A stretch of 63,926 bases of DNA, counting the filler, from Intoshia linei (lineage: Eukaryota; Animalia; Orthonectida), in assembly GCA_001642005.1 (NCBI GenBank). It is 5 parts of 5 records of this genome, joined end to end, with 100 filler letters (N's around TTAATTAATTAA, not from the genome) between each part and the next. Parts side by side here need not be neighbours in the genome. Positions count along the whole stretch, not along the records: positions 30,458 to 52,332 come from LWCA01000616.1; 4 more parts are not named here. One strand, written 5' to 3'. Each line of letters opens with the position of its first letter. Positions within the stretch are counted from its first letter, which is position 1. The notes below the pieces were generated by a model that was not told the origin of the DNA, did not search any database, and was given only the letters and a program-made list of their open reading frames with translations. The position numbers were made by a program, and so were the translations under genes. Of the stretch, positions 5,729-51,390 are shown in pieces.

Positions 5729-6873
5729 TTAAGTAAGTCGGACACTGTGGGAAACATTTTTACGAATTCCATATTTTTCACCATCATATTTGTCCAATTC
5801 TTTTCGGTGTGGTCTAACTTGTCCCCGTCTTCGTATAAGTGCTTTTCTGTATTTATGTTTATGTTTAATTCTAGAATTTCTATCAATTTTCTTTCTTCGA
5901 GGCGTTAAACCACGATTTTTCATTATCTGCTTAGTAATTAATCTTTTTGGTTCATTTTGTACAATTTCTGTATTAATTTCTGATTTGTCATTAGATAAAT
6001 TAAATTCAACATTTCTTTTTTTCAGTATAGGTTGAATTTTGGTATTAAATTCAGTTAGTAAATTTTTTAATTGTATTAATGTGTTGTAAACTTTTTTAGA
6101 TAATTTTTTATTTCCAGATTTAATTGATTGCAAGTAAAAAAGTGAATTCATAATATATGTTTTTTTAATTTTATCCATTGGAGTAATTTCATTTGTACTT
6201 TTTACACTATTAATAAAAAGTATAGCAGTCTTGAAAATACTCGTATCCAATTTTTCATTCGATTCAGTAGTCAAAATATCTTCAGAAACTTGTTTATTTT
6301 TTATTGTTTCAGTTATTAAAAAATCGTCATTTTTAAATTTTGAATACAACTCTTTTTGAAGAAATAATGCTTCCTTTTGTTCCAAATCTTCAGCAATTTC
6401 ATTATCTGAAACATCTATATTGTGACCTTCGTCCACACCTCCATAAAAATCTTTTGATTTCCATTTATATTTAATATGATCAGGTTCGGATTCAGATTCT
6501 AAAATATTAAATTAAGAATTATACAGTATTCTATTTATAATTCGCCAATCATTTACAATATAAAATTTACAATGGTATAAATTTATTAAAAAATTTGTTG
6601 AAAAAACAGGTATGAAATGTCAATGTATGAAAATTTTTCTAATAAAAATTAATAGTATTATACAATAAAATGTATTGTATTATGCAAATTCCAACATTGA
6701 CCAAGTAAAATTGTAGAAAGAAAATACAGTTTTGTACTATATTATAAAAAATTAATTTAATCGATACCACTGGACATTGATGATACACTATCAGTTTGAT
6801 TTGAATCTTCATTTAAATTTTCTTCATCGGATGGTTCATATTTATCAGCAATGTATGATTCAGAATCAGACAT
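5729..6873 (-). CDS. UTP3: SAS10/UTP3 SSU processome component; exons 6873-6768 and 6498-5729
   Basis: Acidic N-terminus MSDSESY..., then WKSKDFYGG, and a Sas10 C-terminal domain KRLITKQIMKNRGLTPRRKKIDRNSRIKHKHKY...YDGEKYGIRKNVSHSVRL. The phase-1 GT-AG intron splices in frame. Confidence 0.92.
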
Positions 6874-6960: not shown

Positions 6961-9900
6961 TTAAAATTTGAATCCTATACGTTCCATTGATTGTTTGTAG
7001 TAAGATTCTTGCATCATTTCATGTAGTCTAGATTTTGTGCGAACTATGGAAAATTTTTCTTCGTCACCTCCAAACATGTATTTCGTTGCATTCAGCAAAT
7101 CTTTGGATTTATGATTTGAACTTACATTCTAAACATTTATTATTTACTATTATGTCAATTTAGATACAAATGTAATCTACCTGATCCAAGTCTCCATACA
7201 AAGTAATCATTTCCTTTTCATCCTGAGAATTGTTTTCAAATTCAAAAATATTTTTTGCCTCTCTTTGAGAATGAAAGATGAATATATTCTTAGCAAAATA
7301 GTAAAATTAACAAAATATAACTCAAAAATAAATTTTCACGATTTAAAAATTTTCAAGGACTTTAATTTTCTGATTGATGTTTTTTGAAATAACCTTAACT
7401 TCCTAAACAAACTCTTGAATAACAGAATATATCATCTTACGATTTTAAAGTTACGGTCCAATTTAAAAATCTTTATCACTTTATTTTTATATAAGACTTA
7501 TAAGTAAATTGAATTTTTTTAGAACGTACCTTGTTTTTAGTAGAATTGGTTAAGTTTTAGTGATCATAGTTAAATTATCCATACATTCAGACAAATATTT
7601 AATTAAAATTAGATAATTTTATTAGACAGGGACAAAGGCATGAAAATTATTTCTAACAAATATTCACAAAAAGTGCAAGTTTTTTTTATTAATTAAAAAA
7701 AATATGAACCTAGCCATTCTAATTAACACAATTTTCAGTCAAACCCGTCAAGTGTAAATTTTGAAAATCTTCTCATAAAACCATAAACTAATGTAAACAT
7801 TAATAATTTTCATATTTACCTTATTATCATAGAGAACATCGATAAATGTAATAAAACGGCGAGTTTGAATAAGATTGTTTTGGCCAAGTTTTGGAATATT
7901 TGACATAAAGATTATATTAAATTTTTTAGCAATAGCTAAAAAATCTGCTGCACCCAATGGCTAAATTATTAGAATTTTACGAAAATAACCAAAAAAAGAT
8001 AAAAAGTACAGTATACAATTTTACATGTATTTACAAAGATGGATTAAAGGTAATTCAGCATGATTTTCGTCCATTAATTTAAGCACAACAGTCTCTTCTT
8101 CTTCATTAAAACATACTATTTGACCTATTTCCTTGAAATATTCACCTTGCGTTACAATGACATTGCAATCAATTTTACTCGGTATAATAGGCTCGACATC
8201 AACAACATTGACTTCAGTGATGCGATTATCAATTTTTATGCTAACTTTGTCAAAACTAATACGATCAATCACTAGAGCAGGTATATTTTTATACAAAACA
8301 CAAACATTATGGATAACCCAAAATAAATTAGAAAGAGATTTAGCATGTTTTTTAACAGGTTTATTCACACTAATTTCAATAGATTCATTTTCCGATATGT
8401 CATGATTAATTTCTTGGTTTTCAGTGACAATTGTGTGATTTTTTTTATAATCGTTATATTTGTCTTCATTAATATACCTAATTTTACGTTTAAACTTTTT
8501 TTCAGAAATGAGTTTGATAACGTGTTGTGATAAGTTAACCATTTCTTTCGAATTGTGTAATAAACCAAATATTCTTGCATTGTCAAGTTCGATATCTTGT
8601 ATAGTACCACATTGGCCTTGATGTAAACCAGATTCAACAATAAAATGCGTACCTTTGACCATTTTCAATTCAAAATCATCATCATTTTTATGTCCATGTT
8701 TAGATTTATACTTACGTTTATTTGGGTTAACGTCAGCTGCTAAACCTAAACCTTTTGGGCGAACTTTGTAACTTTTAACAGAAACCAACTGTTTATTTTT
8801 CCCTATGCCTTCACCAGGATTCCAACCCATACCTCTTAATAAAGCAGATCCGTATTTTTCAATTGGAGTCGTTAAAATATCTTCCATAGTGCTACATTCT
8901 GCAAATGATTCAACGTCTACTTTATCGTTTAGTACATCATTTAATATTTTATTTATTTTAGAGTTTGGTTTTGATTTTAAATTGCTGTTTATTAACGGAA
9001 TTATAAATTCTTTGTCACTTTTTGATTGTTTTATCTCGTTATCTTTATTTTTTGTAGGATCGTTATGAAATATATCAATGTCTGTAGATCTTTTTATTTT
9101 GTTTTCAATTTTGGTAATTTTAAAGTTAATTGAAGACATTTTGATTATTTGAATATTAGAATTTGATTAGCTAATAATTGTAACTATGCCGACTCGTAAT
9201 TGATGACTAACTTTATTTTTATAGATGCATAATTTAATTATTTAAATTGAATTTAATTATTCACAATTATTGTCCAATTCCTGATTTGTGAAATATTTGA
9301 CCGTATAGTGCCAAATACTTAAAAAGTAAGCAAAACCCAAATTTTTTTTATTTCTCCAATATTTTTGTGTACCAATAAGTAAAGAATCACCATATTCGAA
9401 CAGAGCTGAACCTACCATGCTCGAGAGCACAAAAATTAAAAATTGCCCTAAAAAATTCATTACGATGCGGAATGCAATAGAACCGTTAGAATCCCTTCAC
9501 GGGCCTAGACTTGAAGTTATGATATTGGAAAATTTTTTTTATAGGTTGACTGTTGGCTCTACACTGCCATGGTAATCTAATTTCTCTTATCCACTGGTTT
9601 TTACTTGACAGTTCAAATTTTATACTAAGCACTTATCAACCGTTTAAAATTTAAATACTCAGGTTCATTTTACAAAAATTTTATCAAGGTCCCAAAAGCA
9701 TCGTTTACGGTAGGCTCAGTTCTGTATCTGAAAATATATCCTTTGGTTATTTAATGAAAAAATATTTAAAATACAGTAATTATTTATAAAAAATAAGTAT
9801 AAATTACTTTATCACAAATTTCTTCAAATTCTAAATAAACTGAATTTCCACATGTTAAATTCAAAACAATATTTCGACCGTAAATATTAATTTTTTCTTT

Positions 9901-27000: not shown

Positions 27001-30000
27001 TTCATTATCATCATAGTTTAAATTTTCACATGTTGAAATACGAGAAGAACAGATATTATCATGGATATATTTAACTAGCTTGACAGTTTGGTATTACGTA
27101 CAAACAGCACCTAGTTCTGCCAAGGGCACTCTTTTATTATACTAAAAAAATAAATTTACGTTGAAAATCTAACTTAAAAATTGTACTAGTTACTATTATC
27201 AATCATTTAAAAGAGTGGTTCCCAAATTTGTTTCGGGTGGCACCGTCATATCACATTACTTTTTAATATAAAGTGTATAATAATTCATTCCATCTTAATT
27301 TTGTTTTGTTAACATTTGCGTAAAGTATTTTAAAAACAATTATTATCCAATTTTTTTAATTTATTAGACAGAATGTATGTATAATATTAAAAATAAAAAG
27401 TAAAAACGGTCCAATCTTAAAAATTGTCATAAATACCATAAATTTCAGAAAAAAATAAAATTATAAAAACCTATTTTGTCATTTTCAATGTAATCATATA
27501 TATTCAGTACTAATTTAATAAATACTTAAAAATACCGATAAGGTATTAATAATTAATTGAATCTTCACTTTATAAATATTTAAGTCGAATTTTATATTAT
27601 TGCAAAAAATTGTAACATAAAATTTTACTTTTTTTTTTGGCATTTTAATCAATTAGTAAAACAATAACATGTTTTAAATTAAATTAAGTTAGTATAAAAC
27701 TTTTATAAATTTGTTGCCGTAGTTTAATTAAGATGTGTTTAAAATGTTTTGAAAATGAAAAATTAAAATTTAAAAATTGCGTAGCAATTAAAAAAATTTC
27801 GAAGGAATGAATTTTATAGATTTTTATTTATATGTCTTTATTGGAAATGTGTAGTCGTACAATCCACATTTTTTTTGAAATTCTAGGATTAATATTTACA
27901 TTTTTAAGTTTTGATTTAAATAAAAATATTTGCAAAATATTGATTGATAGTATATGATGTCTTTATCCTAGTTCTCAAAATTATTTTGATATCTGTTTCT
28001 TAGTTTTTCGCGAAAGATTTTATTAAGCCATTTTACAGTACTGATTTTCTGGTGTTTATAAGCTTTATTTTGAGTTAGTGTACATGAAACTCCAAAATGT
28101 TTGCATAGTAGTTTAGTGAAATTCGCTTTGAATTGTCTACCCTGGTCGGTCTGTATTGGTTTTGGCGGACTGAATTTTACGATAATATTTTTGTATATAG
28201 CTCTTGACCCCGATTCAGCGGTTATATCGTTTAATGGCACGAATTCTAACCAACCTGTATAATAATCCAGATGTTAATTATATACTGATATCCGTTAATT
28301 GAAATTGGAAATGGTCTTAATATATTGACTTGCCATCTGACTTGTAAATAAAATTTAATTAAAGCGTAACACACACACAAACGAAAATCGCGTAGAGTTT
28401 TATATTAAGTTGGCAACTAAGTTCTTGCCATTTTTTAATTATGCAATAGTTACTGGCGATGAAAAATGGATCCTGTATATATATGAAGCAGCGCAAGGAA
28501 TGGCTTCGTTTTAATAAAAAAGCGACATTACGTGTGAAACACGATCTTTATTCGCGTAAAACAATGTTATATGTATGGTGAGACTGGGAGGGGATTATTT
28601 ATTAATAATTGCTATAAAGAAATCAAATAATCAATGTGAAACTTTATGTTTAACAGATGGAATGACTAAAAACGACTATTCAGGAAAAGAGACCTAATTG
28701 ACAGCACCTTGTTCTTTTACTGCATGACAACGCCCGCCCTCATATTGCAAATATGACCAAAGAAGCTATTTAAAAACACGAGGAAGGTGCTGCTATACTC
28801 GCCATACTCGCTGGATTTGGAACCACCATTTTTGGCGCTGCTTTATATTGATATACAGGCACCATTTTTCATTGCCAGTAACTATTGCATAATTATAAAA
28901 CGGCAAGAACTTAGTTGCCAACCCAATATAAATTAGGATTATTGCTATAAATGTATGACTTTTTATTTATTTTTTTCAGTTTTTTAGGAATATAAAGGCG
29001 TAACGTTTTAAAAATATCACCTTCTAATACTATTGTTTTGTCGACTAAATTCTCAGATAATTAAATAAATAAAATTATCCGTTATAATACGATTTAATTA
29101 GTAAATTCAACTAAATATTACACTTTAGATATAAATTGTGAAACTTGGGATGACAATAATATATACTGTTCAACATGTAAGGATAATTCTGAATTAATAT
29201 TTAAACCAAACGGAGAGGCAAATTGCCCAGGTTAGTAGTAATTTGATATTTAAGTGTTTTACGCAGAGTTGTCTACGTATCATCAAAAATCCAACTTTCT
29301 TATTAATTTATCAGGAAAAAACTCAACTGTGCAACAACATACCAATTTTTTTTATTTTTGCTTTACACTGAATTTATTTGTCAAATGAATGCTACTTTTT
29401 TTAAATTCTTTACTTATAATCAGGGCGATTATTTTTTAATTAGGGCAAATTTTGATATCTTCATACGCATCAAATTACAATAAAAATTATAATAATTTTA
29501 CGTATATTAATTAGCTAATAAAAATTTGATTAAGTTAATAAAGTTAAACGCCTTAATAAAATTAAAATAATAATTTCAAAAGTTAAATTATATTTTCAAC
29601 AATTAATTTTGTTTTATACAATTTTGTTTTGTTGTGTACTTTTATTTTAGACATGATTGTAGTAAATAAACTTATTGATTTTTATATTATTCACTTAAAG
29701 CAATTTGTATTTATTCTTAACTTATTTCTATTCACAATATAGGTAATTTAGCAATACGTTTATATGATTAATGTTTTTTTAAGCATGACCAAATTTAATT
29801 TAAAACTATAACAACGATTACTAAAAGTAATACCACTTTGTTAGTATCATTTTAGTCATTAATCGTTTTTATTATTCATTTCTAATTTCCAGGATCGAAT
29901 AATCGCAAAATAATGAAGACGAAAATTTCATTTATTGTAAAACGGTTAATAAATAAAGCACTTGTTCTTGATATTAACAAGATAAGTTTTAGTTAATAAT

Positions 30001-30337: not shown

Positions 30338-30457
30338 GTAACAATTATTATATTTTANNNNNNNNNNNNNNNNNNNNNNNNNNNNNNNNNNNNNNNNNNN
30401 NTTAATTAATTAANNNNNNNNNNNNNNNNNNNNNNNNNNNNNNNNNNNNNNNNNNNN

Positions 30458-31514
30458 GTGTATATGTATTGAGAGAAATGATGCTGGTACTTTTTAAAGA
30501 TAATGGACAAAGTGAATTTAGTATATTAATCGAAAATCAACTTTGGTGTATTAAATTGGCTTATCTCTCTGATATTTTTGATCATTTCAATAGAGTAAAT
30601 GCAAGTATGCAAGAGAAAGAAGAAAATATATTAACTTTAGTTGATAGAATTCATTCCTTAAAAGAGAAGTTGGGGTCTGGAAAAGGCGTATATAATAAAA
30701 GTATATATATTATAATAGAAAGAAATTTTGCCATTGCTATAAAAATCAATGAATGTAATTTGAAATATAGTATCACTTCTTTAATTGTTAATCATTTAAC
30801 GGATCTACAAGGTAAATTGCACCATTATTTTCCCAATATTAATACAAAGGATTATGACTGGATGATAAACCCATTCATCTCAATACCAAAAAATGCTAGT
30901 CTTATTGAGGAAGAAGAATTTATAGATATTAAAAATGACAGAAGTTTATCAGCTATGTATAATAACGTACAGCTCAGCAGTTTTTGTATAAATGTCTCGA
31001 AAATATACCCTACTGTAACTAATGAAGCATTAAAAATACTTTTACAGATTTCAACCACATACATATGTGAAATTTCATTTTCTGCGATGTTACTAATTAA
31101 ATCTTACAAACCAAGAAGCTTTAAAATGTTGGATGACGAATTGCGAGGATCATTAACACAAATACCTCTTAATATTAAAAGAATATGTTCATCCAAACAA
31201 TCAAAAATCTCTCATTAATTTTGTAATTTATTAGATATAAACATTGATGTTATACATGTATTTGAAATGATCTTATTATTTTTGTATTTGTTCATTTTTA
31301 TTCACACTTTCAATTTATACATTTTTTTTAATAACATTACCTATAATTATTTTTAATCTATAGTGGAGCAATAATTTTATATCATTTATTTTGAGATTAT
31401 TATTAGAAAAAATTTCATTTCAACGTATCAATAGTATATTTTTAGATTGGTGTGTCGCAAAAACTTTTCAGATTGAAATGTGTGTCGCCAACAAAAATGG
31501 GTTGGAAAGCACTG
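30458..31514 (+). mobile_element. hAT (Buster/Charlie-type) transposase 3' part with right TIR
   Basis: W.IKLAYLSDIFDHFNRVNASMQ, YFP, WMINPF, ALKILLQISTTYICEISFSAM..IKS, terminal SKQSKISH. The end reads GTTGGAAAGCACTG. Confidence 0.88.
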
Positions 31515-34759: not shown

Positions 34760-36540
34760 GATATCTGATCATACATGTTTGTTCCTATAACAATTTCAGA
34801 AGGTGATACACCATTCTTTGAAGTGATGGTACTGCGTAGGCTCATAAGAATACACTGAAGTGATTATTCCCATAACGGATCATCAGATTCACATAAAATA
34901 CGTAATCGTTCATTTAGCTCGATTATAGCGTTTTACCATTCTATTTTGTTTGTGTTCATATGGTGCTAAAAATGATTGTTCGACATTATACATTTTACAC
35001 AACTTTTTAATTATCTCAGCCTGAAACTGTTTAGCATAATCCATATGTAACCTATTAGGCGGCCCATAACGATATAATATTTTCCAAAATAGCAGTGTAA
35101 ATTAGGGTATTTCACAATTTTCAAATTTCATAATTTTTGAGAACTTTAGCATAAAAAATGATTAAATTGATATAAAAATCACTATATTGCAAAAAAAAAA
35201 TATATAAAATCTTTGTTTGAAGTTGCCCCATAAAAGAGGTTTTCAATATCAAAATTCATAATAAAAAGTAAAATAAACTTAAATTCTGAAATTATTCTGA
35301 AAATGGACTTAAAACAAGATTTTTTTGTAAATTTTTATATAAATTACCAATTTCACAACAGACTACCTACTAACGAACATGTTATCAATAGGATATTGGC
35401 AATGAAGCACGACAAAATCATAAAACCTTATAGAGTCATTTCAAGAGAAATTGAAAAAATTGTAATTGCTTCAGGATTAAAATCCTTCAGAATAGATCGA
35501 ATGGAAGTAAAAATTAAATTTTTATGGTCTATGTATAAATCAGGAAACAAGCGAAAATCATCCAAAGCAGCCAATAATCTAAAAAATTTTTACCAAATTT
35601 GTTTAAATTTTATAAAAAGTGTCAAGCAGGAACCTTGGAGGAAGATTTAAAATTTCTTGAAGTTCAAGAACAGAATGGTACAGGATTTATTTCAAATATC
35701 CCTATTGAAGATAACATTCACCTAACAAATTCTTCAAACCCAAAAAAATAATATTAATGACGATAAACGTATTAAAAAGGTGAAACGGGAGTATAATGAA
35801 ATTAAGTACATGATGTGGCCTTCCTCAAGTGAAAATGAAATACATAATTCCAAAGAGGTCAAACCAAATCTATGGAATGAAAGCGATAGAAGAGGAGCTA
35901 GTGCTTTGTTCAATGTTTCGTATTCTATTGTCAAAAGAAACAGACTAAAAAGTCGCTTGTCCTTAGCTAACAATATAAATTTGAACATTGACGCTATCAA
36001 AGAATGTGTTGTTTATTATGATGGTAAATCATTTAGGACTGGATACGAGCGCATTGCTGTAGTGGTAATTGATATAGCCACTTGTAAAGAATATATATTA
36101 TCAATCCCTGAACAAAGTGGCGGAAAAGGTGTCACCATCCTTCATATTTAGCCTTTTTTCAAAATTTAATTTAATCAATAATTGGGTTCTGACACCGTAA
36201 TTATCTTAAATTATCATTAAAATGCCAAAGAGTGAGACACATAGCAACGGAGTATGTATATAAGACTTAATTTTAAAAATGTAACTTTATTTCAATTTAT
36301 ATTATGCAATTTTACATTAAAAATTTATTTACTTTGGGGCAACTTCAAACAGTTTTTATATAAAAATTTTTGTATTTCACTGATTTCTATTTCAATTTAA
36401 TCATTTTGTATACTAAAGTTCTTACCAAATCTAAAATTTTTAAAAATGTGAAACACCCTAGTGTAAATATTATGTGCTGTAATAAATTGCATAGGTTGGA
36501 CTTCAATCCAACCTGAATAATGGTCTACCATAACCTAGCA
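34760..36540 (-). mobile_element. Retroviral-type integrase remnant split by the hATm insertion
   Basis: Joining across the TSD gives VMVDHYSGWIEVQPMQFITAHNIY|TAILENII.RYGPPNRLHMDYAKQFQAEIIKKLCKMYNV...APYEHKQN...ERLRILC...MSLRST...GVSPSEIV.G. Confidence 0.8.
35103..36460 (+). mobile_element. Internally deleted hATm-like DNA transposon with ~130-bp TIRs and an 8-bp TSD
   Basis: GTGTAAAT|TAGGGTATTTCACAATTTT ... AAAATGTGAAACACCCTA|GTGTAAAT. The ORFs contain RLPTNEHVI and VYYDGK...ERIAVVV. Confidence 0.85.
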
Positions 36541-36640
36541 TTAATTTATTAATTATAGAAAATAAAAATGATCACAAATATGATGATAAACTAAAAGCAA
36601 ACCTTTTAACTTATTTATTGAACAACAGAGCAAGAAATCC

Positions 36641-37057
36641 ATTTGTCCTGAAAATTTGACGGGCAATGTAGATGATGGCACATTCTATTTTGAAGATAAT
36701 TATATGAATATGCGCATTACAAAAGGAGCCAGCTATAAACATATGCTATGGCAACATTATATGGAGATTGTAACTGCAAGGGATGGTTTGTACATGACGT
36801 TTTTCGAATTCGTGTAGCGCCTCATAGATACGTTGTTATTTATACGCCACAAAGCTGCACACCAAACTATGTTTTAGACAAATTCGACAACTATGCTTCT
36901 CGACGAGTAGTCGTGAGCACCAACAATGGTGCCAACCTAATGCGGACAATCTGCAACGGGTTGTGCAATCACTGTTGACACTATTACCTATTCAATTTTT
37001 CACTCATGTATAATACAACTGGAAGCGAAGAACATAGAACCTGACAGTGAGTACTGA
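36641..37057 (+). pseudogene. Endogenous nodavirus-like element: fragment of the protein A N-terminal capping (MTase-GTase) region, frameshifted
   Basis: ICPENLTGNVDDGTFYFEDNYMNMRITKGASYKHMLWQH / GDCNCKGWFVHDVFRIRVAPHRYVVIYTP...RRVVVSTNNG / AITVDTITYSIFHSCII. This is colinear with the recalled nodavirus pattern F.P..V.G...D..F.....N...M.V.GGA.YKH.LWDY...P.R.++...P. Confidence 0.7.
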
Positions 37058-40719: not shown

Positions 40720-41463
40720 ACAAAAAAAAATTTTGGATATCAAAATACACCAACAAAAATTTGTCTGTGAAAAGTAGTCTTGCATCGTCAACTGTTTTAG
40801 ATATTAAAAAAAACTCAGAAATAATAATACATAATAAAAGAACAAACAAAAATTTTAAACAAAGAAAATGATTAACGAAGATTGTGGTGGATTAAAAAAG
40901 TTCAAAGCCAGTGATGGATAACTAAAGTCATTCAAACGCAGGTGATACATCCTATAAAACGTTGTCTGGTACAAAAGCATCATTTAGTCAAAATAATATT
41001 GATGATTTCTTTCACATTTTAAAAAATAAATTAATTGAGTATGAAATAAAGGACATTTTTAATGCCGATGAAACTGCACTATATTATAAAAAATTGCCTA
41101 CAAAAATCTTTAGTACATTTAGTTACATCTTTAGTGCACAGGAATCTACTAAAAAGATTAAAGACAATAAAGATAGAATAACAATTTTACTCAACTGTAG
41201 TGCTGATGGTAAACAAATCAAACCGTTATTCATTGAAAAAAGTGCCAAACCAAGGTATTTCAAAGGATTAAATATGAATGAACAACCTTTCTATTGTAAA
41301 AGTAATTCAAGTAATGACAAGTCGAATATTTCACGATTATATGAATAATTTAAATTATTTATTTTACAAAACTAATGGAAAGGTTCTTATTTTGATAGAC
41401 AATTGTCAATTCTATATAAAAAACAAGATAATCATTTCCTTTGAGTTCAATTTATATTTATAA
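40720..41463 (+). mobile_element. Tigger/pogo (DDE_1) transposase remnant
   Basis: FKASDG*LKSFKRR, DIFNADETALYYKKLP, KDRITILLNCSADG, KPLFIEKSAKPRYFK, KVLILIDNC. Confidence 0.9.
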
Positions 41464-41975
41464 ATAAAAAATTTTAACTTTCATTTTTTCGAGAAACCTC
41501 CAATGTTAATTGCGTTATCAACATTTATTAACAACCAAAAAAACAAAATTCCTTTACGATTTGAACAATTAACTATAAAAAAATGATTTTATTTTTTGAA
41601 AATATGAAGTTAGTTAAGAAACAACGACTTTATGTTACTGAAAATGTATATAATTTTCATAGACCTCAAAAAAGTGCTTTGGACCCAAAAGGTCTACATG
41701 GACCCCGTTGGGAATGCCTGGTTTAAATCGAAAACCACTGTATATGGAAAATGTTTTATGTTTATAAGGATAGATAGTTAGATATTTCACCATTTTTAAA
41801 ATAGTTATACTAATCGGTACATTTTGCTTGCCCTAATTAAATTTTAATAGATTACAAATTTTGATTGTAATCAATCGACAAAGATACATATCTATTGCTT
41901 TGATTTTCGAATGGCGGATCAAGCTAATTAAATATATAATATAATTAAATTTACGTTTATATACTTAAATACTTT

Positions 41976-44340
41976 AGATCCCTGTCACAATTGTTTAGTA
42001 GAATTTGCTAGAGGGCAGTTATTAGGAGAAAGTTATATGTCAATTTTTAAACATCAGTTATTTCATGAACATTCAGAAAACGGTATATGTCTCCAACAAT
42101 AGGGATAGTGTTAGTGGGCATAGTGAAATGGTTACTTAATGAGGAAACACATTGTTGTTTGAAGCATACATTAATAAAGTATTTTGGAAGTACAATAATA
42201 GGATCTAGTTTGAAATCGATGTTTGCAAATAAATTTTCATGTGTACCAGAAGGACAGATAAATACTTATGCACTTAATGGCATATATGAAGTTTTGTCCA
42301 CGCTTAATCCACTTGCAAATATGGACAAGAGTAGATATATGGAGGCTGCCAATTTTTCAAAAAGTTTTTCTTCTAATTGTACTGCAGTTCAAAAGTTAGA
42401 AATTACTTTACTAAGTTTACTAAATTGTTTAGTTACTGCTTATAAGTCATCTATGGAAATTTTGCCTTCAGAAGTATCTTCGTGGGTTAAAACAGTAGAT
42501 GACCTTCAAGTCCTCTATAAAGCTAATAAAGAATTCATGTTTAGTCGCCAATGAACAAGTTTAGCCTGTATCGATCAAAAATTTTTAACTTATATACAAC
42601 ATAAGGACTAAAATATCAGACCAAATTTTCACTTATAGATATTAAGAGTAAAAATTATCAAATCATTACCTCTAGAATGGCCAAACTTAAACAAATCATT
42701 ACACAATCATGTTCTTCTTACATGGGCAATGACAAAAAACAGAAGCCCTTACTTATTTACTTACATGAATTTCCTGGTATAAGTAAAACCATATGTGTAG
42801 ATCATCTTTTTACTGATCTCTTTGCTTTGTTAAAAAGAGATGTCTATAATCCGGAAACTGATAAATATTGTTATAATAGTTTAAGCCCTTTCTTTGACAC
42901 ATACAATCATCAACCAGTTTTTGAAATTTCAGACTTTATGCAGATGCGTAATAAAAATGTCCAAATGTGTGAAATAGTTAATGCACTAAAAGCCGGAGAT
43001 AAAAGTAGCTTTCCTTTGAATATTGCCAAATGTCAAGCCAAGGGTACTGTTTACTTCACATCAGACTTTTAGTTATAACGAGTAATTTGGATCCTCTTGC
43101 ACACAAAGCCACATTGGGTTCAGTTATGGATAAACCTGAAGCATTCAATAGAAGAATTGATGTTAAAGCTTATGTTACATGTGATTTTTCCATGGCATCA
43201 AAAAATTCCACTATTTATAATAAAGACAGCATGGTTATTCAATGTTAAATTAAGGGATGTTAAAAAAGTTTATGGATGGAACGATTTTGTGGCACTATTA
43301 TATCAAAAATATATAGCACAAAGAATAATATCCTCAAATATGACTGATTGTTCAGGTCATTATCATAAAGAACGTATACCACACATTGAATCTTTACTAA
43401 ATAAGGATTTTGGGGGTAGAGATACCGAACTACCAACTAAGGTGTCTCTTTTTGCAAACCTTTGACAATTTAATTCTTCACTGTGATAATGATTTTTGAC
43501 GTGATTGTAATAGAGTTGCTGAGACTCATCCAGAATTTGCAGACCACTGATACAATATTAGAAGACATACTTTCAAAAGTGAACAAGGAGCTGTGCACAA
43601 ATGTAATAAAACATGCAAATTTAAGATTGCTGTAGGACAATATTTAGAAACTAATTCACATCTAGAAATCCATCAATTGGATCTTTCTCTTGATGACTAT
43701 CCCATTGCGAAGTTGAAATTAAGTGAAAATATAAATAAATATCAAATCCAGTTTGATAAATTTGCGACCGATAATAAGATTTTTATAGAAGCGCAATTTT
43801 TAAATACTACGCAAACATTTGGCAAAAAAGACAATCCCCGATATATCATTGCTTGTAAGAATTGGGTGCTCGCAGTAAATGTATTAAGAGCCCAGAACTA
43901 AACAGTGAACGCAATTATGTTTTTACTGAGTCTGATACGATTGTAAAACCCTATGAAAAAACATTGAAAGAGTTTGTTAAAATGAGGGCTGAGAGTGTGA
44001 ATGCAAACAATGAAATTCATATTGGTAATCCCGTTGACGAAATGTTATCTGAGATAGATAATGAAAGAAAAACGCTTAGATCAAATTGGCCATGAAGGCG
44101 TTTTCGGCAATTGAACAATTCGGCGATTTGTGTGATTGGAGTGAATACCAAAAATCAAAATCACTGTGGTATGTTTTAAAGCGTAAAGCTTTAGAAAAAA
44201 TCAAAGCCGTTATGGGTGTGCCTAAACATGACGAGAAGTCATATTTGGCAATGAAGCTAATTGCTATGGGTGAATCACAACCAGGCGATCGTGAGAAACA
44301 AAATTTTGTGCTAGTGAATAGATGCGAATCAGAGATGGTA
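41976..44340 (+). pseudogene. Endogenous picorna-like viral element: 2B-like region, 2C/SF3 RNA helicase and downstream unassigned ORFs; stops and frameshifts present
   Basis: KPLLIYLHEFPGISKT (decayed Walker A), FFDTYNHQPVFEISDF (motif B), FPLNIAKCQAKGTVYFTSDF/LVITSN (motif C) and PEAFNRRID (Arg finger). Intronless, ORF-dense and less AT-rich than its flanks. Helicase core ~42740-43165; sequence after ~43500 is assigned only by continuity. Confidence 0.88.
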
Positions 44341-44399
44341 ATATTTTTTTATACTTGATAACTCAGGATAATCAAAAATATGATTTTTATTTTTTAGAT

Positions 44400-44650
44400 A
44401 TTTCAAAAAAATATATTTTGTTAAGGAAATTACTGAGAGAAATTTTGTTTCTTACTTGAAAACACCTGGGTCAAGAAGTTTCAACAAGTATTAAACATGA
44501 ATCAAATTTGGTATTATAAACTGCAAAAAGATGCAATATATGTCCAAGAAACACTGAAAAAAAATCAATGGTATATTGTAGTATATGCAAATTCATTGCA
44601 TGTAAAATACACAGAAAAGTTATGTGTTAGATGTGCGCATAAGTTTAGTC
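44400..44650 (+). mobile_element. piggyBac C-terminal cysteine-rich domain remnant
   Basis: KRCNICPRNTEKKSMVYCSICKFIACKIHRKVMC..C. Confidence 0.65.
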
Positions 44651-44696
44651 AGTGATTGTAAATAAATTATTTATGGATACTATTTAATGCTCCGAC

Positions 44697-47110
44697 TAAT
44701 TTAATAGTTTCAGCGTCTAATTAATCCCGCTTCTATAATTATAATTAGCATAATTATTAATTGTAATTAATTATATAAAATTAAAATTCTAAATTGATTG
44801 AAGTAAATTTTATTTTAAATAAACGTAACATTATTTAATATAAAACATAGCGTTTACTGAATTTATTGTATTAACGTCTTTTAATTTTTAATAAAACTTT
44901 AAAATTTCTATAAAACAGTAATTACTTTTTTTATAATCATAATAATTTTAAATAGATGTTTTCTACTATGAAAGATTACGTATCATCCAAATCGGAAAAT
45001 AATATTAATGATGACAGGCAAATCAGGGAAAGAGCAAGAATATATTCAATGAATACTGTGTTCAATTCTGCCGTGTAAGCGAAACAGTACATAGAAGTTG
45101 ATACTTGATCTATTAATACAACTGGAAAAACATTATGTGGTAAAAATGTGTTCTATCGTTGCAAAAAAACGATCAATACTAATAAAAATTCGTGTAAAGC
45201 TAGTTTATACTTGTTATATCATAATAATAATCAACAAGTATCGTTTTGAGCATTCTTAGAATGCAAAAATACGGTCCATGCTCTATTAGCATAGGCGATT
45301 TATATTATTTCTGTTTAAATAACTCAAGTATTCCGACTATTACTGATAATGCATATGTTGTTAAACATTCTATATGTAATGACAGCTTCAGTATATTTGT
45401 CTCTTCCCCTACTCTATTGAATTTATCCGGTAATATTAAATGCATCCACTCTGATGCCACATATAAACTAATATGGCAGGGATACCCTGTCTTGATCGTG
45501 GGTACAACAGATATAGACAGAAAATTCCATCCTTCAGGAGTTGGTGTTTGTACAAATGAAAAATCTAATGATTTCAAATTTTTATTTAATGGGTTAAAAA
45601 AAGGTGTTGAATAATGTAGTAATGTTAGTACATTTAATCCTCGAATACTAATAGCTGACAACAGTGCCGCCATAACATCAGGATTTTCTAACGTTTTTAA
45701 CATGAAAAAACGTATAAATTGTTGGTTTCATATAATCAAGTCTGTAGAAAAGCATGTCAGTTTCCTTTCTCTTAATTCTCGTACAAAAAACGAAATAAAG
45801 TCTGATATATGTCATATTCCACTGCAATTTTTCACAAGTATTCACGAGTTTTTGTTTAAAATGGTCACATTGCACCGAATTTATTCGTTATTTTGAACAC
45901 CAATGGAAGTCTCCACCAAATATGAATTGGTATGAAAGATTTGTTGATTTTTTACCTTCAACTAACAATGGTCTTGAGTCTTACAATCGATTGATTAAGG
46001 ATGAAAATACACTTAGAAATAGGTTACCACTGGGTCAATTTCTAAAAATTTTATTTGAAAGTATTATATTTCTAATAATTCTCGAAATTCTACAAATCCA
46101 AATGCCAAATTGTATGTGACAAAACAGACATTAACCACTAAAAATTAGACAGATGCGTATCAATGGATTCAAAAACGAAAGACTATTATTATGTCACATG
46201 ATCAGTATTATGTACCAACTGGAAATGATGTTGACTTGACCGAGGACCAAGTGAGTCAATATATGGATTCAATAAATCAAAACAGATTTAAAAATTTTTT
46301 CAATATGAGAAAATGTTTAAATTCTGTTTAGAAAGTATCGCTAAATCGTAATAATTGGAAGTTTTTGAAGTGTACGTGTCCCTTTTGGAGTAAACCTTAC
46401 ATGTGTAAACATTCCATCGGTATAGCAATACGATTAAAAATCGATGGGTGTATTGTACCTCGAGAGGCGAAAGCTCTGTCATTGAATATTAAAAAAAAGA
46501 GAGGACGACCAGCTCAGACTAATCAAGCTTTGATGAGGCAGTGATAAATTCAAATATAAATGTTTTTAATTAATAATAATAAATTTTAAATTTATTTACA
46601 GTGAACGACAGCTAGTATGCTAAAAAAATAAAATCTTTAATACTTAATATACATTTTATTTAAAAAAAAAACTATTTGAGTTAAAAAAGACAGCACAAAT
46701 ATTGTTCACTCTGAAATCGTTGTTATTTAGGCTGGGTTTTTAAATTTCATAAATCTAATATTACAAGTACGTGAGTTACAATAATAATAATTTCATTGAA
46801 CGTTTTTCGAAAATTAATTCATAACAAATAAAATAAAGTAAATTTATTAATAAAGTAAGCAATTTGATAGCCTAGAACAACTTGTGCTGTTTATATATAC
46901 ACCATATCAATAGATATAAAAGGGTAGAAAGTTTGAATTCAATTGAGAAAGGTTATATTTTTCCCCTAGCACAATAGCTGTCGAACACTATTAATATCAA
47001 TAAATTAAAAGTTAGTTTTATAAAAACCAATGTTATGTTTAAATAAAATAAATGCTACTTCTATTAATTTAGACGCTGAAATAACTATAGACGCTGTAAC
47101 TATTAAATTA
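44697..47110 (+). mobile_element. Decayed MULE/Mutator transposon with SWIM finger and TIRs
   Basis: HSDATYKLIWQGYPVLIVGTTD, LIADNSAAI, CWFHI, STNNGLESYNRLIK, CTCPFWSKPYMCKHSIGIA and KRGRP. TAATTTAATAGTTTCAGCGTCTA (44697) is the near reverse complement of TAGACGCTGTAACTATTAAATTA (ends 47110). Confidence 0.9.
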
Positions 47111-49380: not shown

Positions 49381-49540
49381 AAAAAGTATTGTTAGTGTAA
49401 ATGCGGTAAATTGGAATATGATTTCATGATAGAGTGTGACACATGTAAAGATTGGTTCCATGGTAGGTGTGTTAAATTAAAAAAAACAGAGGCGGATAAA
49501 ATGCAAAATTTTGTTTGTAAAAATTGTAAAAAATTGGAGA
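49381..49540 (+). pseudogene. PHD finger remnant, probably TE-associated
   Basis: [32 protein letters not shown]......NFVCKNC (C4HC3), with an in-frame stop. Confidence 0.7.
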
Positions 49541-49689
49541 TGAAAATGTATAAAAAACGGCCTAATAAATTTAAAGATTTTGTTGTTGAAAACCAAATAT
49601 TGATGAAGATTAAAAGTTATGATCATAATGAAAAAGTTGTGGTGGAGAAAACCAATCTTAAAATAATGGTGGAAAAATAAGCAATATTT

Positions 49690-51390
49690 CGATAGTGGGT
49701 GAGAAGAAGAATTTCAAATTTCATTTGTATTGTATCAGATTGTATTTTAAAGTAACGATAACTATTTTGAATTTTGTTCTTAAATTTATTTTCTAGATCA
49801 TTAAAATTCTTCAACTTCAAGCATGAGACAACATGCTAGTAAGAAGCATGATGTGGTTTTGGATGATTCCTCATCTTTACATAGCACCAAAAGTTTTCTT
49901 CTAAATTTACCTAAGCATGAAGTTGAAAAATTAAATAATAATTAAATGGAAAATGATAATAGTGGATGGCAGATCATTTTCTGATTTTCAAAAAAAAATT
50001 AAATCATTTTTGAAAGATGGCATTCCAAAAAGTTACCAGTTGATAAGCCGGTTTCAAGCTGCACGGAAAATTACAGATTTATATATGAAAAAAACATTGA
50101 AATTAAAAAATGAATTGAAAGAAACTGATGTTCTAAGTCTTACCCCTGATATGTGGTCATCAAGCAATAAAAACACATTTATGGTGATAACAGCTCACTA
50201 TATACATCAAAATAATCTTAAATCCATTGTACTGGATTTTCGCCATTTTTCTGGTAGGTATACTGGTTTACATATTGCAAATAGAATGTTTGAAATTCAT
50301 AAAAAATTTGAAATTGTGGAAAAAACTAGATTTGCAACAACTGACAGCGGTGCCAATATTATCAAAGGTTTCAAAGACTTTAAATCAATGTATGGAGTTG
50401 ATATTGAACGATTTCCTTGTATTTCACATACATTGCATTTGATAATTACCAAGTCACTTCAGTTATGGAGTCAAAGAACTATTGCTAATGATGATAATGC
50501 TGACTATGAGTTTAGTATTGAAGATATTGATATAATTGCTGACATAAATATATCATCGGAAAATGAAGCAGACACTCATGAAACCATTGAAAGATATTTA
50601 TATGATAGTGAAAACGAAACTGATAATGATAAAGTATTGATAAATAATAGCATTGAAATATTCAGTTTAGCTCTTTAAAAAATTAAAAAAACGATTGTGT
50701 TACTAAATCAATGCCCCAGATTGAATATGGCATTACAAGAAAAGTTGAAAACAAATAGTGATAGCAAAGCAATTCCATGTTTAGATTCAAAAACTCGTTG
50801 GAATTCAACATATCACATGATAGATAGAATTAATAACATTCAGATAAATACATGCTTATCAGACAACAGATCACTAAGTTTCTGACAGATGCTGCTTTCG
50901 CAAAAAACCGTAAAAAGATTGATAAATTCCATAAACAAATTCTGAATTCAGAAGAGACCACTTCTTTGAGTGCATGCCTTGTAATAATTGAACCTTTTAT
51001 AAAATTTACTGTTATTTTGAGTGGAACGTCATATACAACATCAGCTTTAGCACTTCCAATGATTAAAATCATTTGTGAGGTTGCTTCGGCTAAGCAAACT
51101 GATGATTTATTATTGAAATTCTTAAGAAAGAATAAATAAATGGCTTGTCATTATTTCTATGATGAAGCTGGAGAACTCAAAAAGCACGTAATGAATCTGC
51201 TGTGGAATATTGGACCAAAAGCAACCTAACAATTTTAAAAAAAGTTTCTATCAAGTTTGTTGTCACTCCTTTAACCTCAGTAGCATCAGAATCAACTTTT
51301 AGTATTAGTGGCATCATCATTTCCAAAACAAGAGTAAGACTGAAAAATTATAACATAAAAAAACTGTTGTTTTTGAAAGACAAATTATAA
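49690..51390 (+). mobile_element. Decayed hAT (Ac/ZBED-type) transposase
   Basis: SLTPDMWSS, FMVITAHYI, TTDSGANI, PCISHTLHL, LDSKTRWNSTYHM, and the hATC motif PLTSVASESTFSISG.IISKTRVRL. Confidence 0.92.

Follow-up and report, generated by a model that had tools for sequence, protein, structure and literature searches.

The stretch of DNA analysed here (the window) comprises 63,926 nucleotides, filler included, from the genome of the orthonectid Intoshia linei (assembly GCA_001642005.1), joined from five parts of five records. Positions 41956-43874 of its plus strand very probably hold a broken DNA copy of the 5' part of a picorna-like polyprotein gene, which likely arose as cDNA made by a retroelement enzyme, likely entered the germ line of this fast-evolving animal in a single insertion and has been decaying since. 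Judged by sequence, the element is a non-retroviral endogenous viral element (EVE), in that it combines homology to an RNA virus, within host DNA, with inactivating changes. A first-pass annotation had proposed an endogenous picorna-like element with a 2C-type superfamily 3 (SF3) helicase at 41976-44340; the firm homology begins about 20 nt further left and stops about 470 nt short of the proposed end. The element and the tail adjoining it are made up as follows:

41956-43874, plus strand: decayed picorna-like polyprotein remnant with N-terminal, 2B-like, 2C helicase and post-helicase regions (alignment to P0001)
41956-42551, plus strand: pre-helicase region, in frame pieces 41956-42057 and 42069-42551 (alignments to P0001, P0002 and P0028)
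42551-43245, plus strand: SF3 (2C-like) helicase (PF00910, identity to P0001, motif table), with a stop at 42602 and a frameshift near 43069
42767-42790, plus strand: Walker A region, in frame piece 42605-43069, decayed
42917-42937, plus strand: Walker B region, in frame piece 42605-43069, of the type of the lineage
43072-43086, plus strand: motif C, in another frame after the frameshift at about 43069
43141-43155, plus strand: A..RR arginine finger, likewise in another frame after that frameshift
43223-43874, plus strand: post-helicase polyprotein region (piecewise alignment to P0001)
43875-44340, plus strand: GC-raised tail (36% GC; CpG observed/expected 1.06), unlike the element in composition

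A frameshift-aware alignment showed 41956-43874 to be collinear with residues 45-658 of P0001, a complete picorna-like polyprotein of 2,453 amino acids and the best match of the helicase piece. The alignment scores 851, versus 39-40 for three shuffles, and 239 of its 605 residue pairs are identical. With tblastn and piecewise alignment, eight of twelve pieces, spanning 41956-43850, are ordered along P0001 45-733; seven of them were equalled by none of 200 shuffles and one by a single shuffle in 200. In the piecewise alignment seven pieces are firm, the weakest of those counted being 43554-43616 (z 3.9), while 43404-43550 reaches only z 0.8 despite its in-order position. The same procedure gave no match to P0001 for the off-frame control, 43859-44092, 44080-44355 or the region 44437-44652, and a search for an extension to the left of 41956 yielded nothing credible.

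Upstream of the helicase, the matches cover P0001 45-78 (z 13) and 87-225 (z 22), P0002 133-285 (z 35) and P0028 87-224 (z 35). A site near 42246 resembles a recurring putative cleavage motif of the relatives and may once have served as such. Downstream, 43271-43399 matches P0001 466-508 (z 9.4), 43554-43616 matches 561-581, and 43701-43850 matches 686-733 (z 8.3) by piecewise alignment, where the frameshift-aware alignment instead runs up to 658. P0001 itself has a weak internal repeat, 590-670 versus 676-760 (11-14 of 1000 shuffles), of which the element appears to hold one unit.

The frameshift near 43070 reported in the first-pass annotation is present, although it is not the only break: there are five frameshifts (near 42072, 42550, 43069, 43238 and 43419) and three in-frame stops (42602, 43497 and 43548), and a functional protein is unlikely to be made from it. 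Assuming that decay was neutral from the outset, the three stops among 634 codons translate into roughly 0.03-0.04 changes at each site (95% range 0.006-0.12), which suggests some 3-4% of neutral change since insertion (0.6-12%). Most of the roughly 40% helicase distance to P0001 therefore likely predates the insertion. On these figures the element is a dead, fairly young fragment.

The frame piece 42605-43069 matches PF00910 RNA_helicase (E 7.2e-9, 36.5 bits, cutoff 21.5) and is 63% identical to P0001 over query positions 15-155. Motifs A, B and C, followed by A..RR, lie in the order and at the places first described. Both Walker motifs had been described as decayed, which is borne out for Walker A: the element has lost two glycines that are kept in all 57 other rows with a full motif. 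Walker B is a different case. Among 61 aligned rows, 39 have DD, 10 QD, 7 ND and 2 SD, with 3 gaps, and the two SD rows are the element and the intact P0001. Throughout the near clade (P0001-P0010 and P0014) the first Walker B aspartate is replaced (10 QD and 2 SD), and a sister group of seven has ND. Because intact P0001 shares SD and its neighbours have QD or ND, the element's SD is a lineage trait rather than a sign of decay, and a single Walker B aspartate is, by this alignment, the native motif of near-clade helicases.

A profile of the helicase piece and 13 short relatives ranked 2C structures first (E 2.7e-32 to 7.8e-20), followed by an NTPase entry (1e-19), Rep proteins (5e-8 or weaker) and AAA+ proteins (1.3e-6 or weaker); the helicase piece alone, searched directly against PDB, found nothing below E 0.066. 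The element shares the order of SF3 motifs A, B and C and the arginine finger with the solved structures of Picornaviridae 2C and calicivirus NTPase. It differs from both in that its lineage has the non-canonical Walker B and that the capsid region of its relatives follows the polymerase.

Searching 1.84 billion representative proteins with the helicase piece gave 120 matches at E<=0.001, of which 38 reach 1e-10 and 7 reach 1e-30; the top match has E 4e-54. All of the best 15 of these 120 carry RNA_helicase and 13 carry RdRP_1, the RNA-dependent RNA polymerase (RdRp), downstream of it, the other two being partial records; in 9 of the 15, Peptidase_C3 lies between the two at E<=0.01. Together with the ranking of 2C above Rep and AAA+ proteins, these matches uphold the original identification of an endogenous Picornavirales-like element. 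Since the element is a fragment with the helicase side only, its membership in the order rests on its relatives: the helicase-protease-polymerase block of Picornavirales is absent from the element itself and present in the nearest complete relatives. These relatives have an N-terminal polyprotein collinear with the element and a 2C-like helicase with QD or SD, 37-63% identical to it in the helicase piece; the element, in contrast, is DNA, is broken and ends before the protease, polymerase and capsid.

Names were retrieved for 29 of the 120 matches. They include Beihai sesarmid crab virus 2, Cryptolin calicivirus 1, Sphaeripse virus, Mute swan feces associated picorna-like virus 3 and Beihai barnacle virus 4 and, more distantly, Dugejap, Schmimed and Dendrolac viruses. 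Going by their names, Cryptolin and Sphaeripse viruses presumably come from trematodes, although no such source was stated in the main text that was searched.

A dicistro- or ifla-like affinity, as initially put forward, does not agree with the layout of the nearest relatives. Ten of the 11 nearest full-length relatives have one open reading frame (ORF) running 946-1,117 residues past GDD, several with capsid-family matches; the P0001 helicase lies at residues ~300-410, and capsid matches in the relatives come after the RdRp. Neither the two ORFs with an intergenic internal ribosome entry site of Dicistroviridae nor the capsid N-terminal to the helicase of Iflaviridae was found in them; the closest viruses encode helicase, protease, polymerase and capsid, in this order, in a single ORF and belong near Beihai sesarmid crab virus 2. 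The non-structural-first layout of Marnaviridae is, we assume, compatible with the lineage; no named marnavirus occurs among the 29 named matches. As for Caliciviridae, one relative is named 'calicivirus', and 2C structures outrank the NTPase entry modestly. Preprint 10.1101/2025.06.19.660416 places the clade beside Caliciviridae, PMC7019641 treats it as invertebrate picorna-like, and the two papers attribute it loosely to 'invertebrates' or to diet; Schmimed virus 1 is presented as a planarian virus in PMC9241645. By the homologies above, the element derives from an unclassified picorna-like lineage. With 59% identity across 171 columns, the element and P0001 are likely separate species; the virus from which the element descends was likely a species of its own that has yet to be described.

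Three of the 29 named matches are cellular: A3Q56_02120 (OAF70133) and A3Q56_06782 (OAF65502) of Intoshia linei and ACOME3_006771 (KAL7671869) of the acanthocephalan Neoechinorhynchus agilis. Their contigs, which are cellular, measure 43 kb, 10.5 kb and 16 Mb. A3Q56_02120 matches the pre-helicase piece and the helicase start of the element. These three, annotated as 'hypothetical proteins' (P0028 and P0031 from Intoshia linei, P0023 from Neoechinorhynchus agilis), are fragments of the same picorna-like lineage; a search with P0028 found only itself (1 of 726). We built trees from 61 rows (the best 60 of the 120 matches) and from a 22-row subset, in which two of the three cellular rows fill less than half of the columns. 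In each tree a starred clade unites the element with P0001, P0002 and the two Intoshia rows (96/87 with 61 rows, 95/86 with 22), and a clade of the three animal-genome rows is neither rejected nor shown (p-AU 0.24). The pieces from both animals are truncated and of the same virus lineage as the element. The Intoshia pieces differ from it in their low identity, 46% over 94 columns and 58% over 74 columns, so they are not recent duplicates of it; this suggests separate insertions from different viruses. RdRp genes of viral families, probably of viral origin, have already been recorded in the I. linei proteome (PMC6396948), which makes viral fossils in this animal less novel. Our search of the literature, most subscription papers being outside it, turned up no picorna-like EVE described from orthonectids or acanthocephalans.

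The tail at 43875-44340 is possibly a diverged 3A/VPg-like region, or else unrelated. Two open pieces of 78 and 92 amino acids in 43875-44355 have no firm match to anything, and in three frames the tail gave no Pfam match and only sub-threshold matches in the Atlas. Its resemblance to P0001 837-919 (1 of 500 shuffles) is weak and unstable, having been obtained against a restricted target with a stop read through; without reading through the stop it fell to chance level (123-248 of 1000 shuffles). A collinear match of 44080-44355 to P0001 740-900 was rejected (149-239 of 1000 shuffles), as was a 3C protease remnant picked by eye at 44140-44800, for which the best result was 26-32 of 500 shuffles and a profile of nine relatives was silent. 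No protease or polymerase remnant was found within the window, in agreement with the first-pass annotation, which had recognised no 3C or RdRp motifs downstream.

Picorna-like viruses have no DNA stage, and a borrowed reverse transcriptase would therefore be needed. A retroelement enzyme of the host would have made cDNA from viral RNA, and this cDNA would have been inserted once into the germ line and then decayed. Template switching by the enzyme of a long terminal repeat (LTR) retrotransposon, or repair-mediated capture of cDNA, would be preferred over long interspersed nuclear element (LINE) priming on the tail, because what was copied is the 5' part and neither a poly(A) run nor a credible target-site duplication was found: no A or T run of 8 or more occurs between 41400 and 44550, and 12 bp repeated directly at 41778 and 44394 were rejected as a target-site duplication, 196 of 1000 random placements yielding such a repeat.

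The window as a whole is AT-rich animal DNA (26% GC) that is interrupted by N gaps and contains short repeats and numerous relics of transposons. GPKOW, Sas10 and a phosphodiesterase are host genes with long unbroken frames; a TBC protein and a proteasome subunit are also encoded. The other features are:

5732-6511, minus strand: Sas10, a single long frame, very divergent from the relatives found
8024-9166, minus strand: GPKOW, a single long frame, very divergent from the relatives found
27971-28273, minus strand: integrase-core relic (rve E 5e-5, below the Pfam cutoff)
30406-31215: second transposase-like frame
34913-35101, minus strand: integrase-core relic (rve E 9e-5, below the Pfam cutoff)
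36590-36814, plus strand: nodavirus-like methyltransferase relic (PF19222 Noda_Vmethyltr, E 1.9e-7, 31.3 bits, cutoff 30)
40926-41345, plus strand: left neighbour, pogo/Tigger-like DDE transposase relic (DDE_1 E 8.3e-4, below cutoff)
44788-47073, plus strand: right neighbour, MULE-SWIM transposon relic (MULE E 4.6e-4, SWIM E 2.6e-5)
49396-49677: PHD finger
49935-51387: hAT relic (CpG observed/expected 0.45)

A search with GPKOW found 45 relatives, the named ones all animals, with no Intoshia protein in the list; none exceeds 46% identity, or 40% where coverage is above 40%, and its tree shows a long branch (2.43) and no starred group. The MULE-SWIM relic has inverted ends of about 88 bp (44788-44874 and 46991-47073, 77%). 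The nodavirus-like relic, an unrelated RNA-virus fragment, lies 5 kb upstream of the picorna-like element on the same strand; a further open piece in the next frame extends it to 36590-36975 (plus strand, 38% GC), and PDB, the Atlas and viral contigs gave no support for it. There is no N gap between 30457 and 52333, and none within 8 kb of the element. The transposon relics on both sides, the unbroken host frames and the lack of a gap in this interval make it unlikely that the breaks in the element are general assembly noise.

Several observations weigh against a retroelement-mediated insertion of a viral gene fragment. The right end of the element is undefined, no reverse transcriptase or LTR adjoins it, and the integrase relics, both below the Pfam cutoff, lie 7 and 14 kb upstream in window coordinates. 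Relatives were sought in vain in a word-index search for longer proteins (0 of 144 candidates) and in three scans of viral and metagenome contigs. Among sequencing runs, none of RNA was listed as containing the stretch; one DNA run shares 0.64 of the words and may be the source sample, and four others share 0.17-0.29, which is no evidence because transposon flanks were part of the query. The element differs from the window in GC (31% versus 26%) and in CpG observed/expected (0.45 versus 0.96), but this CpG deficit is non-specific, and we rejected it as a sign of foreign origin since the hAT relic has the same value. Both junctions, finally, are as the assembly gives them.

One alternative is compatible with a decaying viral insertion and adds a function to it: the 31-52 kb block would be a locus resembling a PIWI-interacting RNA (piRNA) cluster, in which the element is kept as a small-RNA template for defence. 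The two RNA-virus fragments, unrelated to each other and separated by 5 kb, share their strand with the pogo, MULE and hAT relics, and among the pieces scanned a lone PHD finger is the only conserved host gene from about 31 to 52.8 kb. For Aedes, piRNAs that derive from EVEs have been described, and in a whelk they are suspected (PMC6085071). The integrase relics, however, are on the opposite strand, the noda match is barely above its cutoff, and repeats are rich across the whole window, so that clustering may only mean a tolerant region. We consider such a function doubtful on the sequence evidence. The broader proposal, that at least three separate insertions of one picorna-like lineage and a noda-like fragment were archived in a piRNA-cluster-like block of an orthonectid genome, is equally tentative.

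It is less probable still that the element is a secondary copy, moved with or between DNA transposons from an original insertion elsewhere. Its site in a block rich in repeats, flanked by pogo-like and MULE relics, and the other pieces of the lineage in Intoshia linei would fit; those pieces are nevertheless too dissimilar (46% and 58% identical), the window holds no second copy, and the MULE inverted ends do not enclose the element. An assembly artefact, in which an exogenous virus or another organism's sequence was joined into the scaffold, is very improbable: the scaffold has N gaps elsewhere and the junctions come from the assembly, but no replicating virus could carry the five frameshifts, the three stops and the inactivated Walker A, and nearby host genes are unbroken. 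Finally, the helicase might descend from a cellular AAA+ pseudogene, from a plasmid-like element or from a DNA virus (CRESS Rep, parvovirus NS1, Polinton), an origin that the first-pass annotation had asked to be checked. SF3 motifs are common to all of these, and Rep structures match the relatives' profile at E 5e-8, yet this origin appears effectively refuted already, as 2C matches are up to 24 orders of magnitude better, 13 of the 15 best matches have a picorna-type RdRp, and the homology to P0001 reaches far outside the helicase. The part upstream of the helicase, where a Rep protein would have its HUH endonuclease, matches viral polyproteins.

A picorna-like viral insertion is an object of a well-known kind and of moderate surprise, and its value is as a clue to the host. 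Arthropod non-retroviral integrated RNA virus sequences are, like the element, fragmentary, decayed and found among transposons. Of two surveys, PMC6955108 lists Picorna-Calici EVEs for arthropods, with none in the nine clades found in basal hexapods, and PMC12922265 has none among the families listed for Bombus, so that picorna-like EVEs seem uncommon in those surveys.

An endogenous copy is one of the few ways to prove directly what a metagenomic virus infects. The element likely records a past germ-line infection of its host, and small worm-like animals are likely true hosts of this group of viruses, which has mostly been encountered in mixed samples. If the insertions were indeed archived as proposed, EVE-based antiviral memory would extend beyond arthropods and, taken with the acanthocephalan piece, the clade of sesarmid crab virus 2, Cryptolin and Sphaeripse viruses would infect parasitic worms and not the sampled crabs, barnacles and birds. 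Some 'hypothetical proteins' in the named orthonectid and acanthocephalan proteomes are virus fossils, and the germ-line copy, together with the pieces in these proteomes, gives the clade a testable host range.
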